In this document: positions 17,956 to 20,900 of the stretch, in pieces
Layout: each line of letters starts with the position of its first letter
How positions within the stretch are numbered: the first letter of the stretch is position 1
Assembly (NCBI GenBank): GCA_001897305.1
Contig: MKSO01000001.1
Span: 450,001-482,000, forward strand
Direction of reading: 5' to 3'
DNA: 32,000 nt
DNA from: Candidatus Saccharimonadota bacterium
GTDB taxonomy: Bacteria > Patescibacteriota > Saccharimonadia > Saccharimonadales > Saccharimonadaceae
The notes under the pieces: generated by a model
The model's input: only the letters and a program-made list of their open reading frames with translations
Databases searched by the model: none
Told to the model about the DNA's origin: nothing
Position numbers and translations under genes: made by a program

Positions 17956-20900
17956 CTATGTAAACTTTATAAACCCTGCAACTAAGAACGCTAAGCCTGC
18001 AAATAAAAGACTTACCACAAATGCGCCCGCAAGACTAAGTATAATTTTACGACGTGCATATGGATTGCGTCCTATCGCAGCCACACCAGCACCTGCCACC
18101 CTACCAAACCCAATCGCTGCAGCAACAAACCCAAAGATCGCAACACCAGCAGCGGCAATATTGCGGGTGGTTTCCGGATAACTATTAGAAACATTAAAGA
18201 AACTGTGAACGAAGTTTGCAATGCCATCACCAATACTCGAAACTGCATTGTAAATGGTCGCCCAGATACCACCACCAGATAGCTTCTGTGTGGCGTATTT
18301 ACTTTGTACATTCAAATTACTACTAACACCCTGTCGTTGTTGCCCAGCGGTTTTGATAATCGTTACGGCATCTGAAGTGTTAATCGCCACCTTACCTGTC
18401 CATTTACCTTGTGTAAATGAGCCCGTAGCCCTTGGTGTGATTGTCGATGATGAGTCGCTCAATTCGACCGGCCCCTTAAAGTCAGTGTCGACAGTTCCAT
18501 CGCCCTTGTATGCCGTAAGAGTTAGTTGGAATTGTTCGCCTGAGACAATCTTGTCGTTTGGTACATCAACAATGATATAACCCGCTGGGTTTGGATTCAT
18601 CGTCACCGTTGTGGTACCCGATTTTGTGAGCGACTTGTCTGCTTGTGTCACCGTTACCTCGACACTTGCCGAACCAGGCTTCCCGTCTGCCTTGAAAGTA
18701 ACTTCAGGGGTGTTATTAGGACTTAGCGAGCCAGCACTCGTCTTCCAAGCATACGACAATTTCGATGGGGCTACCTCATTGTTATATCGGTCAAACCCTT
18801 TAACCGATAGGGCTATCGAGCTTCCTACTTGTGTCGTTGGCGAATCAGGGCTTACCACGAGATGGTCGATCTCGCCAGCACCCTCTCTATTATCACCAGT
18901 TAATCCTGGCAGGGTCGTCACACTTACTGTGGCATAATTACTCACCCCATTAACTGTCGCTTGTACTGTATCTGTGAAAGTGCTTGTTTGCGAGCCGGCT
19001 GTAAATATACCATCGTCAGTTATAGTTCCACCACCAGCAACTACATTCCAATCTGGGGTGAAGCCCGTTACCTGATTACCATATGAGTCAAACGCCGTCA
19101 CCGTAAAGTACTGTGAACTTCCTGTCAGAAGCGTCGTTGATGATGGCGTTACCTTCACCGAACTTACCGCGGCCGTTGTAGCGGTAACATAGAAGTTAAC
19201 GCTTACTGATGACCTACCATCAATACTAGCGGTAATGACATAACTTCCAATTTTATTACCAATTTTGAAGCTTGACTTTGCAATACCATCCACACTTGTA
19301 TTGACCGATACCGGTGACATGGCGGCACCACTAGAGTCAACCGGGCTGGCATCGACGCTAAACTTAATGGCTATGTCAGACATCGGGTTGCCGTATAAGT
19401 CAACTGCCTTAACGCTAAATGGCGTACCGAGCGTTGAACCAGCGGCACCCTTTTGGTTGGCACCGCCATCGATAGTAAGGAATACCTGCTGCTCACCAGC
19501 TTCGACCTTAAAGGCATTACTTTGCGTCTGGACTGAACCATTACGCAGGATGATTACATCAGATTCAGCCGTCTGGGTTATCGTTACAGAACCCGTCCAG
19601 GTTCCATTAATAAAGTTAGCAGTTTGACTTGGTGAAATAGTACCCGTACCATCCGTTAGCGAAGCCGCTTGGTTAAATGTACTTACTGTATTTCCGTACT
19701 GGTCAGCTGCTGTAGCTGTTACCTGGAAAGCACTTCCGGCGATTTGCGGTGAGTTAATTTGAGCAATGCTAAACTGCGCTAACAAATCTGATACGATGGT
19801 TGCATCCACCGATTTACTCACAAGGGTTGAGCCGGCTGAAACAATTAAGTTAACGGTTGCAGAAGCCGTTTTCGTAGCCGCACTAAGAGTTATTTGTTTC
19901 GTGTTAAGAGCCGAGGCGGTTCCAAGTATGCTAGGAATTGACCATGTGTACGAGACGTTTTCTATTACATTGCCAAACCTGTCTTTACCGTAGCCTATTA
20001 AGTTAGCGGTTTTACCAGCGGTAACAGTAATAGGGTTAGGACTTATGTCGGCAGAGTAAAGTTTATCCGGGTTAACCGTAAATGGATCCGATGACGAAGT
20101 TACCGCCGCATACGTTGCCTTCAAGTGATTGAGCCCAGACTTCTGGAACGATACCTGACCCGTCCATACGCCTTGTGTTAAAGGCCCCGTACTTACGGGC
20201 GTCACACCACCAAGGTCATCACTCAATGTTAGCCCATTGGTAAATCCTGTAATAGTATTGTTAAAGCTATCCTTTGCGGTAATTGTGACATAGGTTGACT
20301 CCCCTGCCACCGTATTAGGCATCGGCGTAAACATAAAATGATCGAGTGCGCCTGCGTTGATAACCGTTGGTGCGTCAGCCTGCTTTGTAATATTGCCCTG
20401 AATAGCCACAACACGAACAATTCCCGAACCCGTCGCTGAGTTAGCAGTAAACGTAGTACTTACTCCACTCGTTGGTGACACTGTTCCAATTGCGCCTATT
20501 ACAGACCAGCCGTAGCTTAAACCAACAATAGCGTTACCGAAGGCATCATAGCCTTGGGCTGAGTAGGCCTGGGTTTGTCCCACCGTGACGGCCGTACTTG
20601 AAGGTGTAATAACCACATGATCAAGCACATTTGATATGACATCAAACTGATTAGACGTACCAGAGATAACTCCCGATGTTGCCTTAATACTATTCTGCGT
20701 GTATACATTGCTCATTTGCACGTAGCCTGTCCATACACCACTACTGAAGTTGGTGGTCTGTGAGGGTGACATTGTTCCAGATTTGTCGCTCAGAAGAACC
20801 TGAGAATTAAACGAAGTCACAGTATTGTCGTACTGATCGCGAGCCGTGATCTTCACCTGAATGAGCTCTTGAGTCGGCTGAGGAGAAGAAATAGGGTCAA

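Follow-up and report, generated by a model that had tools for sequence, protein, structure and literature searches.

In the gliding of Mycoplasma mobile, an F1-type alpha/beta motor without a proton-conducting Fo is tied, genetically and functionally, to very large surface proteins, and ATP hydrolysis powers work outside the cell. In type III secretion and flagellar systems, the FliH-FliI-FliJ apparatus pairs an ATPase related to F1 with partners that resemble b/delta and gamma; it docks on a membrane ring and serves an end other than ion-coupled ATP synthesis. Typical Saccharibacteria carry complete clusters with H+-type c subunits (PMC9296517), and 10 of 33 sampled CPR genomes are reported to have lost genes required for the canonical complex, such incomplete gene sets being interpreted as gene loss (PMC10656485). 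The complete genome of WWE3 RAAC2 has genes for a, b, and c beside the F1 genes that "lack significant homology," and its putative c resembles a transmembrane protein found in OP11/WWE3 ATPase operons (PMC3812714). The purpose of the enzyme is still an open question (PMC11665869).

Here, we analyze a 32-kb stretch of Candidatus Saccharimonadota bacterium (contig MKSO01000001.1, positions 450,001-482,000, forward strand), hereafter the window. It encodes a giant secreted protein, giant1, whose last 77 residues are homologous to F-type subunit c over the whole subunit, including its N-terminal cap. This module is the only c subunit encoded together with a full F1 and peripheral stalk set, and the set has no subunit a.

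RESULTS

Gene cluster and F1 subunits

The module belongs to a cluster of 11 genes on the minus strand, with intergenic gaps of -31 to +29 nt, in the order TPR, giant1-c, giant2, ABC, FtsX, b, delta, alpha, gamma, beta, epsilon. Window coordinates are as follows.

25686-26405, minus strand: TPR protein, 239 aa, membrane-anchored, first gene of the cluster (Pfam TPR families)
17956-25656, minus strand: giant1, 2566 aa, secreted (open reading frame and translation)
25561-25656, minus strand: predicted signal peptide of giant1 (read by eye from the translation)
10668-17948, minus strand: giant2, 2426 aa, with an N-terminal membrane anchor, Kelch propellers, and FN3 domains
9869-10666, minus strand: ABC transporter ATPase, MacB/FtsE-like partner (Pfam ABC_tran, 2.8e-28; synteny)
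8670-9866, minus strand: FtsX/MacB-type permease with a periplasmic core domain (Pfam MacB_PCD and FtsX; synteny)
8140-8655, minus strand: subunit b-like peripheral-stalk protein with one N-terminal transmembrane helix and a coiled coil (directly before delta)
7619-8143, minus strand: subunit delta (OSCP) (Pfam OSCP, 5.3e-9; NCBIfam)
6082-7626, minus strand: subunit alpha (Pfam; NCBIfam atpA, 446 bits against a cut-off of 484)
5220-6095, minus strand: subunit gamma (Pfam ATP-synt, 2.6e-30)
3793-5223, minus strand: subunit beta, canonical (Pfam; PDB matches)
3563-3823, minus strand: subunit epsilon, 86 aa, beta-sandwich domain only (Pfam ATP-synt_DE_N, 4e-13)

An earlier note, made from the DNA letters alone, had placed giant1 in the same transcription unit as an atp cluster devoid of atpE. 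The linkage holds, b, delta, alpha, gamma, beta, and epsilon all lying downstream on the same strand. The order TPR, giant1, giant2, ABC, FtsX, b, F1 genes recurs in 12 loci from Saccharibacteria/CPR3 genomes (L001-L012). Since scans for promoters and terminators yielded no more hits along the cluster than in shuffled sequence, the case for a single operon is made by gene packing and synteny. The TPR gene lies 29 nt upstream of giant1, a position kept in L001, L005-L007, L010, and L012; we considered whether this 239-aa gene might be atpB and rejected the idea from its Pfam matches to TPR families. The start of giant2 is 7 nt past the stop of giant1, and giant2 follows giant1 in all related loci, shrunk to ~400 aa in L012. 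In the lineage of the window (Saccharibacteria/CPR3), giant2 and the ABC and FtsX genes are thus three genes between the c fusion and b.

The gene set comprises the catalytic F1 (alpha, gamma, beta, and epsilon) and the stalk (b and delta), with b weakly supported: it has no Pfam match, its match to the NCBIfam family F0F1 subunit B is collinear and weak (E=1.2e-6, 28 bits, far below the cut-off), and its best PDB match, PS3 subunit b, reaches an E-value of only ~3. Beta scores 518 bits against 9nvl, in which the F1 beta chain is a hybrid carrying ancestral core domains, and 511 bits against the beta chain of 2qe7; its catalytic motifs are intact (P-loop, GERTREG, and DELSDED). The P-loop of alpha is degenerate in the window, with GEKNSGQS in place of GDRxTGKT. 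Every subunit scores below its NCBIfam equivalog cut-off, and alpha and b also give weak NCBIfam matches to SctN and SctL. Beta shares 65% identity with its counterpart in L012, the only distant locus of the Saccharibacteria/CPR3 lineage (lineage A) in which beta is visible; between lineages that share the architecture, beta identity is only ~50%. Judged from the sequences, with the beta motifs kept and b and delta retained, the F1 looks functional.

Giant1 and its C-terminal c module

Giant1 consists of a signal peptide, NHL beta-propeller repeats (approximately residues 50-760), many Ig-like (Big_1-type) modules, and the c module at its C-terminus; its Pfam matches are NHL (2.3e-54), TEN_NHL, and Big_1. 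Full-length orthologues in L005-L007, L010, and L012 share 48-54% identity with it and likewise begin with a hydrophobic N-terminus. Its C-terminal features are the following.

17959-18162, minus strand: c-subunit-like helical hairpin, the last 68 aa of giant1 (translation, PF00137, PDB profile, shuffles, AF2/Foldseek)
18163-18189, minus strand: N-terminal cap SNSYPETTR (alignment, comparison with the N-termini of free-standing c subunits)
17959-18189, minus strand: complete c module, 77 aa, cap plus hairpin
18190-18267, minus strand: linker from the last Ig-like domain to the c module, approximately residues 2464-2489, predicted helical with low confidence

The resemblance of the last 68 residues to subunit c was proposed in the earlier note, and positions 17959-18162 on the minus strand translate exactly to the residues quoted there. 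The features on which the proposal stood were all found. Helix 1, described as Gly/Ala-rich, aligns with the GxGxGxGxG of true c subunits, three Gly being kept and two replaced by Ala; the polar R-N-P loop reads G-R-N-P; and exactly 34 residues follow the loop Pro, as in many true c subunits and in Bacillus PS3 subunit c. The C-terminus is of the IKF type, as in true c subunits. The proposed topology also fits, with a signal peptide, the large part outside, and the basic loop inside.

The PF00137 scan that the note had suggested gave a match for the 68 residues (E=5.4e-5, 23.8 bits), 0.2 bits short of the curated cut-off of 24. At E<=10, the C-terminal 115 aa matched nothing else in Pfam beyond two DUFs at E>0.3, and a T4SS pilin-like hairpin (TrbC/VirB2, T4SS_pilin) was rejected, as no Pfam match appeared at that threshold. 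Five homologous fusions (P0020, P0022, P0026, P0032, and L027) exceed the PF00137 cut-off, with 27.7-32.1 bits, and four of the five cover nearly the whole model (model positions 1-60). At E<=10, a profile built from four orthologous hairpins retrieved 29 sequences from the PDB (best, 9e-5); 28 of them were ATP synthase c subunits, with alignments collinear over both helices and the loop. Intermediate sequences that pass the Pfam cut-off connect the module to true c subunits at ~40% identity. Against an HMM built from nine reference c subunits, the real hairpin scored 21.5 bits, a value reached by none of 2000 full shuffles (mean, -2.5; standard deviation, 2.1; maximum, 7.5) and by 4 of 2000 within-helix shuffles that preserved the loop (mean, 5.7; standard deviation, 4.8).

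Structure prediction likewise gave the c-like hairpin that the note had expected. The AF2 model of the c module is a two-helix hairpin (residues 6-41 and 43-76) with a mean pLDDT of 79. The 50 best listed Foldseek matches in the PDB all come from F-type ATP synthases, and every chain that carries a name is described as a c subunit or c-ring; TM scores are ~0.7-0.84 for most listed matches, with weak E-values (0.03 or worse). An AF2 model of the last 208 aa, built from four sequences, contains a helix at residues 106-132, with a mean pLDDT of only 58, and supports no more than a beta domain, a helical linker, and the hairpin. The linker segment is conserved in P0002 and P0003.

Throughout the 21 orthologous modules of the lineage, the cap keeps the pattern [YF]PETT[RK]N, with P, E, T, T, and N invariant in alignment A1; its counterpart in free-standing CPR c subunits is their PE(V/S)xK start. 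A sortase-type C-terminal sorting signal, which YPETT before helix 1 and RRK after it could suggest, was rejected because a second conserved helix of 29 aa follows and because PETT(R/K)N matches that free c N-terminus. No sortase gene was found in the window; one adjoins the fusion only in L013-L015.

The missing carboxylate

The absence of Asp and Glu from helix 2, pointed out in the earlier note, was confirmed, the aligned carboxylate position being occupied by Leu (VVS[L]LF). None of the 21 lineage A modules has Asp or Glu in its transmembrane core. At position +18 after the loop Pro, where Glu (rarely Asp) is found in free-standing true c subunits, no fusion type is acidic; the residues there are Leu, Val, Ile, Ala, Gly, Ser, Thr, or Cys. 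The module is therefore a structural and evolutionary member of PF00137, not a functional ion carrier.

The hairpin is nevertheless the most conserved 68-aa segment of giant1 (identity, 0.68, versus 0.51 overall), and within the hairpin, conservation peaks in the cytoplasmic loop (entropy, 0.41). Such conservation is as expected of a protein-contact surface and would be unusual for a simple anchor. The loop Pro is followed by an aromatic or hydrophobic residue and then by extra basic residues (GRNPYARRK), whereas true c subunits have GRNPE/D.

Absence of atpB from the cluster, and relatives of the fusion in other CPR lineages

Subunit a (PF00119) was found neither among the 15 gene-like open reading frames of the window, two of them without an assignable family, nor among the called genes in a further 10 kb of flank. 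A six-frame scan with an atpB HMM, covering the window and 28 of the 29 loci (all but L029; ~395 kb), gave matches only in the canonical loci L020-L022, and neither an ordinary atpE nor atpB was found in the 22 fusion-bearing loci. An AtpB query from a canonical CPR operon, run against a set of 5.8 billion proteins, gave at least 120 matches; those listed were all close relatives of the query, the few named ones being Paceibacteria-type, and they carry no information on CPR3, CPR2, or Microgenomates. Elsewhere in the genome of the window organism, too, atpB and a true atpE may be absent.

A search for the C-terminal module in related proteins, also suggested in the earlier note, found it in the orthologous giants and in shorter CPR fusions, c-fused secreted proteins ranging in all from 269 to 2,672 aa. 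The shorter ones (269-756 aa), also without the carboxylate, occur in CPR2, Microgenomates, and Woesebacteria. On CPR2-type, Microgenomates, and Woesebacteria contigs, the fusion gene lies where atpE would be, with b, delta, alpha, gamma, beta, and epsilon following directly, and no atpB stands ahead of it; at the corresponding place, the canonical CPR operon L020 has atpB-atpE. Overall, the fusion sits in the exact atpE slot without atpB in at least four other lineage groups. A 232-aa gene after the Woesebacteria fusion, considered as a diverged subunit a, was rejected as b-like because its product has one transmembrane helix and a coiled coil. As three genes intervene between the c fusion and b in the window, the linkage to F1 is looser here than in the other lineages.

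DISCUSSION

Our preferred reading, which we consider somewhat probable, is that the module is the operon's own atpE-derived subunit c, which has lost its carboxylate and become fused to an adhesin-like giant; it would act as an anchor and probably as the rotor ring of an ion-blind F-type ATPase. Since this c cannot carry ions and the operon is without subunit a, the enzyme seems to have been rebuilt for a job other than ATP synthesis. The hairpins may still form a c-type ring, with the giant N-terminal domains outside the cell and the GRNP loop inside, where it would still dock the gamma and epsilon subunits of the co-encoded F1. With neither carboxylate nor subunit a, translocation of H+ or Na+ would be impossible, and ATP hydrolysis by F1 would therefore act mechanically, as torque or torsion, on the ring bearing the surface adhesins, to which F1 would thereby be physically coupled.

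Two features of such a ring motor speak against it. No membrane stator for the b stalk is obvious when subunit a is missing, which leaves the resistance to torque unexplained, and a ring would have to be built from 8-15 chains, each with 2500 aa at the N-terminus of an inner helix.

The strongest competitor, in our view rather unlikely, is that the module serves merely as a membrane anchor, an exapted two-helix C-terminal device, possibly self-oligomerizing, that makes no working contact with F1, while F1 uses an a/c pair encoded elsewhere or acts alone. The lost carboxylate agrees with this, as does the replacement of GRNPE by GRNP(Y/F/L/M)A(K/R) at the loop flank, which changes the F1-facing surface so that it may no longer bind gamma and epsilon. 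The three unrelated genes that separate the fusion from b in the window, and the complete clusters of canonical Saccharibacteria (PMC9296517), fit as well. A plain anchor, however, would not be expected to show its strongest conservation in the hairpin and above all in the cytoplasmic loop, nor to hold the exact length and register of subunit c, and the fusion takes the exact atpE slot, without atpB, in the other lineage groups. In addition, the complete WWE3 genome has this operon type and no recognizable a or c (PMC3812714). The earlier note had left the choice between a membrane anchor only and a c-derived anchor that could join or imitate c-ring subunits. Gene context and conservation favor an anchor that stands in for subunit c over a mere membrane anchor: the module comprises the entire c subunit, the cluster has lost atpB too, and the fusion fills the atpE slot in other CPR lineages.

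Quite improbable, to our mind, is a mixed ring in which a few giant1 hairpins sit as minor subunits among ordinary carboxylate-bearing c subunits encoded elsewhere, tethering the adhesin to a working ATP synthase. Heteromeric F-type c-rings with a carboxylate-less hairpin do exist (c1/c2 in PDB 4bem; c1 of Acetobacterium woodii is the closest precedent), and the small-residue ring-packing motif is retained here, but none of the 22 fusion-bearing loci has an ordinary atpE or atpB, and dragging a 2,566-aa extracellular chain past subunit a would seem mechanically costly.

We give still less credence to a decaying relic, in which a host-dependent bacterium would be shedding its ATP synthase as the genome is streamlined, with the c-like tail as a functionless leftover. 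The loss of canonical-complex genes in the sampled CPR genomes (PMC10656485), the degenerate P-loop of alpha, and the subthreshold NCBIfam scores of all subunits are in its favor; against it, all genes are intact open reading frames, beta keeps its motifs and its 65% identity to L012, the same architecture persists between lineages with a beta identity of only ~50%, and the c module is more constrained than the remainder of giant1. Chance resemblance of a Gly/Ala-rich transmembrane hairpin with a basic loop, to which the simple fold with its weak Foldseek E-values, the high HMMER compositional bias term (10.2), and the Pfam score just below the cut-off might point, is effectively refuted already by the PDB profile with its near-exclusive c-subunit matches, the Pfam scores of homologues and intermediates, the register, the shuffles, and the position in the atpE slot of atp operons.

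If the module does serve as the rotor of an ion-blind ATPase, a more elaborate picture can be drawn, which we offer as speculation and think doubtful. The F1 motor may spin or twist a c-ring in which each subunit extends into a long Ig-like stalk tipped with NHL propellers, and torque or winch-like shortening of the adhesins may give the episymbiont a means to grip, pull, or probe its host. Giant2 would be acted on by the MacB/FtsX-type ABC system as a second mechanotransmitter, and the shorter fusions of CPR2, Microgenomates, and Woesebacteria would be simpler versions. If a rotary adhesin machine of this kind were true, a sizeable part of the CPR would have repurposed its "ATP synthase."

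Our results suggest that the "incomplete" enzyme of several CPR lineages is a conserved, remodeled machine in which the proton channel subunit is gone and the rotor subunit is ion-blind and joined to secreted proteins. This matters for annotation, as automatic pipelines label the fusions as ordinary H+-transporting subunit c, and in gapped MAG assemblies only the last 70-78 residues are called, as a hypothetical protein with a PF00137 match. Where metabolic reconstructions rely on these labels, the organisms may be assigned chemiosmotic ATP synthesis or proton pumping, of which they are probably incapable. An a-less, ion-blind c-ring with its F1 would also be a natural test case for the relationship between rotary ATPases and translocases. 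Finally, the fusion would provide a concrete physical connection from an F1 motor in the cytoplasm to an adhesin on the cell surface; to our knowledge, the equivalent connection is still missing for the gliding motor of Mycoplasma.

Comparison with known systems

The giant1 module shares with canonical AtpE (PF00137; e.g., P0039, the 75-aa c of the Paceibacteria-type CPR operon in L020) the hairpin, the small-residue motif of helix 1, the (E)AIGRNP loop, the 34 residues after the loop Pro, the IKF-type C-terminus, the PExxK N-cap, a topology with both termini outside and the loop inside, and a gene position upstream of atpF. Unlike AtpE, it has Leu at the carboxylate position and aromatic and basic residues after the loop Pro, is fused to ~2,490 extracellular residues, and has no atpB before it. 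A c-type hairpin without the carboxylate is also present in A. woodii c1, where it packs into the rotor ring (PDB 4bem), and in V/A-type proteolipids, whose hairpins are duplicated with the carboxylate missing from one of them. In those rings, however, other hairpins keep the carboxylate, subunit a is present, ions move, and there is no extracellular fusion, whereas the giant1 cluster encodes neither a carboxylate-bearing hairpin nor a subunit a.

As in the window, the WWE3 RAAC2 and OP11 operons have recognizable F1 genes beside membrane proteins unlike normal Fo subunits (PMC3812714). That study reported no homology for these proteins and left their function open, whereas homology to c is established here; the carboxylate loss, the extracellular fusions, the absence of atpB, and the giant variant in Saccharibacteria/CPR3 are new as well, and full-text searches of the literature found no description of c-subunit fusions or a-less operons in CPR. 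Going by its published description, the RAAC2/OP11 putative c and the fusions of Microgenomates and Woesebacteria are probably one and the same phenomenon.

In contrast to the ATPase of the FliH-FliI-FliJ apparatus, the subunits encoded in the window are true F1 orthologues, and no export-gate genes accompany them. The Type 2 G1-ATPase of mycoplasmas (PDB 9io5) and the Type 3 enzyme associated with MIB-MIP are made of extra, diverged alpha/beta paralogues that exist beside a normal F1Fo and have no known c-like component. The beta subunit of the window scores 518 bits against canonical F1 and only 362 bits against G1 beta, and for its alpha subunit atpA (446 bits) is a better fit than the MMOB1660 family (352 bits); these scores and the presence of b, delta, and epsilon led us to reject a Mycoplasma-type F1-like ATPase (Type 2/3). 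Unlike the mycoplasma systems, the window cluster retains b, delta, gamma, and epsilon, and what links it to the surface protein is subunit c, covalently fused.

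The C terminus of giant1 is a complete subunit c without the carboxylate

The 2566-aa open reading frame of giant1 (17956-25656, minus strand) begins with a hydrophobic, signal-peptide-like N terminus and contains an extensive tract of NHL beta-propeller repeats (Pfam NHL, 2.3e-54) and numerous Ig-like modules of the Big_1 type (Pfam). An earlier note had likened its last 68 residues to subunit c of F-type ATP synthases deprived of the ion-binding carboxylate, and its factual points all hold. The quoted residues are the exact translation of 17959-18162 (minus strand) and form the C terminus of giant1. 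The loop reads G-R-N-P and is followed, in an alignment on the loop, by 34 residues, a spacing shared with Bacillus PS3 subunit c and with many free-standing c subunits. A Leu, 18 residues after the loop Pro, occupies the position of the ion-binding Glu/Asp.

The nine residues that precede the 68, SNSYPETTR, run on into the Asn that opens them, and this cap is conserved as [YF]PETT[RK]N in A1, our alignment of four orthologous hairpins. In free-standing CPR c subunits, its counterpart is the N-terminal PE(V/S)xK. Likewise, the (A/G)FIKF C terminus resembles the (I/V)IKF end of the latter. The match thus extends beyond the 68 residues, and an entire 77-aa c subunit is fused in register (the c module, 17959-18189, minus strand).

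Five independent results point to homology with subunit c. PF00137 (ATP-synt_C) is the sole Pfam family for the 68 residues (E=5.4e-5; 23.8 bits, 0.2 bits below the curated cut-off). The A1 profile retrieved 29 PDB sequences at E<=10, of which 28 are ATP synthase c subunits (best E=9e-5), in alignments collinear across helix 1, loop and helix 2. Against an HMM of nine reference c subunits, the hairpin scored 21.5 bits; 2000 full shuffles gave -2.5 +/- 2.1 bits (maximum 7.5), and 2000 shuffles with the loop fixed and each helix permuted gave 5.7 +/- 4.8 bits, 4 of them reaching the score of the hairpin. AF2 modelling on A1 yielded a c-like hairpin of two helices (residues 6-41 and 43-76, mean pLDDT 79), and among its Foldseek matches in the PDB, the best 50 listed all come from F-type ATP synthase structures, every named chain being a c subunit or c-ring; most have TM scores of ~0.7-0.84 and rmsd of 1.2-2.9 A, the small size of the fold keeping their E-values weak (0.03 or worse). 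Finally, shorter fusions of other CPR lineages are intermediate sequences, being ~34-40% identical to the window hairpin and passing the PF00137 cut-off (27.7-32.1 bits), mostly over the whole model. A chance resemblance is thus exceedingly improbable, and is effectively excluded by these results together with the in-register cap. By structure and ancestry, the c module belongs to the c-subunit family, but it fails the functional hallmark of that family, the carboxylate.

The c module is conserved in relatives of giant1

The same C-terminal module recurs in related proteins: a search of 1.84 billion representative proteins with the hairpin profile returned twelve members at E<1e-10 (lineage A), all twelve with the module at the extreme C terminus. 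Six of these are 2001-2672 aa long and the remainder are shorter, mostly assembly fragments. As far as contigs reach, gene order is kept in nine loci from genomes and three from metagenomes, the MAGs being labelled Saccharibacteria or candidate division CPR3; at one of these loci (L012) the neighbouring giant2 has shrunk to ~400 aa and the entire run through epsilon is visible. Among five full-length orthologues, the last 68 residues are the most conserved stretch of giant1 (mean identity of 0.68, vs 0.51 overall). Entropy across 21 distinct modules is lowest in the cytoplasmic loop (0.41), and no module has Asp or Glu in either transmembrane core.

In three MAGs, GenBank/NCBI calls just the last 70-78 residues of a fusion, as "hypothetical protein," so that the fusions are concealed in public annotation.

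Partial calls of fusions
L001:8884-9120, CPR3 GWE2_35_7: long ORF has a frame break
L027:8900-9112, CPR2 GWD2_39_7: continuous 664-aa ORF present
L028:1761-1973, Microgenomates RIFCSPLOWO2_01_FULL_47_10: long ORF interrupted by runs of N

The fusion lies in an atp cluster devoid of subunit a

In the window, giant1 belongs to a series of eleven minus-strand ORFs with spacings of -31 to +29 nt.

Gene cluster of the window, in order (all minus strand)
25686-26405: 1, membrane-anchored TPR protein
17956-25656: 2, giant1 with the c module
10668-17948: 3, giant2 (N-terminal anchor, Kelch propellers, FN3 domains)
4, ABC ATPase
5, FtsX/MacB-type permease
6, b-like protein
7, delta (OSCP)
6082-7626: 8, alpha
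9, gamma
10, beta
3563-3823: 11, epsilon

Promoter and terminator scans of the cluster gave nothing exceeding shuffled expectation, so gene packing and synteny are what the single-operon reading relies on. Beta is a canonical F1 subunit (518 bits to a PDB hybrid F1 beta chain with ancestral core domains) and retains DELSDED. The b-like protein has one N-terminal transmembrane helix and a coiled coil, and matches subunit B models weakly but collinearly (E=1.2e-6).

The cluster had been noted to have no atpE, and indeed neither a second subunit c gene nor a subunit a gene occurs in the window or in a further 10 kb of flank on a 915-kb scaffold of the same organism (L029; ENA ERZ28594994, KANT15-1_SAMN05389819_METAG-scaffold_8, 915,345 bp). 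The 10 kb beyond the left end of the window hold a PAS histidine kinase, secE-nusG and L11/L1 genes, and no atp genes. The organism is frequently encountered: its YgjP-like protein is present as an exact copy in at least 115 assembly blocks, of which 67 have contigs of 0.2-1 Mb and 2 have contigs >1 Mb, which implies that a near-complete genome exists.

Several further features of the locus deserve mention. The Walker A motif of alpha (6082-7626, minus strand) is GEKNSGQS rather than GDRxTGKT, its Lys-Thr pair being gone, and judging from this motif the non-catalytic nucleotide site may be dead in the lineage of the window; alpha of L013, L018 and L020 retains GDR(K/Y)(S/T)GKT. Epsilon is just 78-105 aa long in the window, L013, L018, L020 and L023, in remodelled and canonical CPR operons alike, a length that leaves the beta-sandwich domain only; the C-terminal inhibitory helices seem generally absent in these CPR lineages. 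Right after epsilon, a 201-aa protein rich in Pro/Thr/Ser/Ala/Glu with one transmembrane helix near its C terminus (2858-3463, minus strand) has no family match except a weak one to CD47 TM, and is called again directly after epsilon in L029, one scaffold of the same organism. A hairpin with an 11-bp stem, AGATCAGGCTTCAAAAAGCCTGGTTT (17886-17911, minus strand), closely follows the giant1 stop, ~40 nt inside the giant2 start. It has no T-run after it and is therefore no clear terminator; an effect on translation or on mRNA processing between giant1 and giant2 is conceivable. Divergent from the cluster, a cell-envelope glycosylation set (26500-30431, plus strand) comprises a family-2 glycosyltransferase, a GtrA-like flippase subunit and an 849-aa polytopic membrane protein with a PIG-L deacetylase domain, and may bear on how the Ser/Thr-rich giant proteins are modified.

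Fusions occupy the atpE slot in other CPR lineages

Weaker matches of the same profile search provided a wider set of fusions. Secreted proteins of 650-756 aa with the Ig-like modules of giant1 end in a carboxylate-less c module, and these, like a ~270-aa family, are found immediately upstream of b, delta, alpha, gamma, beta and epsilon, i.e., in the atpE slot. No atpB precedes the fusion at any of the loci listed here, in contrast to the canonical CPR operon (L020, Paceibacteria type), which is ordered atpB-atpE(Glu)-atpF-H-A-G-D-C.

Loci with a fusion in the atpE slot
L013-L016, L018: metagenome contigs
L026: MAG
L027: candidate division CPR2 GWD2_39_7
L028: Microgenomates MAG
L023-L025: Woesebacteria GW2011_GWB1_38_5b

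Pairwise identity of the beta subunits from the window, L013/L018 and L020 is just ~50%, so the architecture is old or recurrent.

The second c-fusion family, of ~260-275 aa, is unrelated to the Ig-like one (gene at L023:2808-3617; L023-L025; P0033, P0034, P0040-42, P0050, P0061-66, P0072, P0074, P0083, P0084 and P0208). It consists of a signal peptide, a beta-rich domain with GD(F/Y)ITSS..PGVG.KA and a carboxylate-less c module whose 13th residue after the loop Pro is conserved as Asn or His, and it matches no Pfam family beyond a weak PF00137; in Woesebacteria it fills the atpE slot ahead of a 232-aa b-like gene. Three other proteins, P0027 (511 aa), P0031 (280 aa) and P0047 (232 aa), contain four to seven copies of the c-subunit loop motif A(I/V)ARQPEA(x)K; soluble or lipoprotein-like, with no transmembrane helices between the repeats, they may mimic the c-ring loop or act as its decoys. 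In CPR2-type loci, epsilon is followed by a conserved secreted protein of ~383-397 aa (L013:14793-15986, L026:17750-18898, L027:15576-16727), 27-32% identical across loci and ending in Y.G.M.YNA. A sortase gene immediately precedes the fusion in L013-L015, and L026 and L027 have in common a dockerin-like secreted protein of 408-412 aa ~0.2 kb upstream of the fusion.

Possible function of the fused c subunit

A full, carboxylate-less c subunit is thus fused to the C terminus of exported proteins, is unable to bind the coupling ion, and is the sole c-type gene in atp clusters that retain F1 and the peripheral stalk; subunit a is missing from these clusters in every locus examined. Canonical ion translocation requires the carboxylate and the Arg of subunit a. 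With both missing, the complex should have no known means of pumping or exploiting H+ or Na+. Because the c module retains the packing motif of small residues, helices of exactly the c-subunit length and a very strongly conserved loop, it probably still assembles into a ring and still touches gamma and epsilon. Furthermore, retention of catalytic beta and of the b/delta stalk suggests that selection maintains an ATP-driven rotary or torsional movement of F1 and the ring relative to each other. The extracellular domains would then receive a mechanical output; in the window these domains look adhesin-like, with distal propellers on a long Ig-like stalk.

We lean towards this overall picture, an ion-blind c-fusion ring that contacts F1 and converts ATP hydrolysis into a mechanical output; that the cluster is more specifically a rotary or torsional ATP-powered actuator of surface adhesins is doubtful. 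The mechanical picture has weak points: there is no obvious membrane stator, and three genes separate the fusion from b in the lineage of the window. Moreover, the loop flank is altered from GRNPE/D to GRNP-Y/F/L/M-A-K/R, a substitution pattern that may alter F1 docking.

The earlier note had envisaged either a membrane anchor or a c-derived anchor able to associate with, or mimic, the c-ring, an interpretation that is supported and extended here. That the c module is an anchor only is rather unlikely, since the fusion recurs in the atpE slot and the loop is strongly constrained. The fusion could instead be a minor component of a mixed ring, as is c1 in A. woodii, but no fusion locus has an ordinary c or a gene, which renders this improbable. 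A decaying relic is still less credible, the genes being intact and conserved across deep lineages.

For the complete WWE3 RAAC2 genome, Kantor et al. reported no significant homology for the a, b and c genes beside F1, and a putative c that resembles a transmembrane protein in the OP11 and WWE3 ATPase operons (PMC3812714). Mahendrarajah et al. (2023) found 10 of 33 CPR genomes to be without genes for the canonical complex (PMC10656485); in Saccharibacteria that bear rhodopsin, the clusters are complete and include c subunits of the H+ type (PMC9296517). In full-text searches of the literature, we found no report recognizing these proteins as c homologs, nor any of the missing carboxylate, the extracellular fusions or the giant-protein variant. 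The closest functional analog is the F1-like ATPase of Mycoplasma, which is linked to giant gliding proteins; it has extra paralogs and is without a c-like part, whereas the window cluster has a fused c module.
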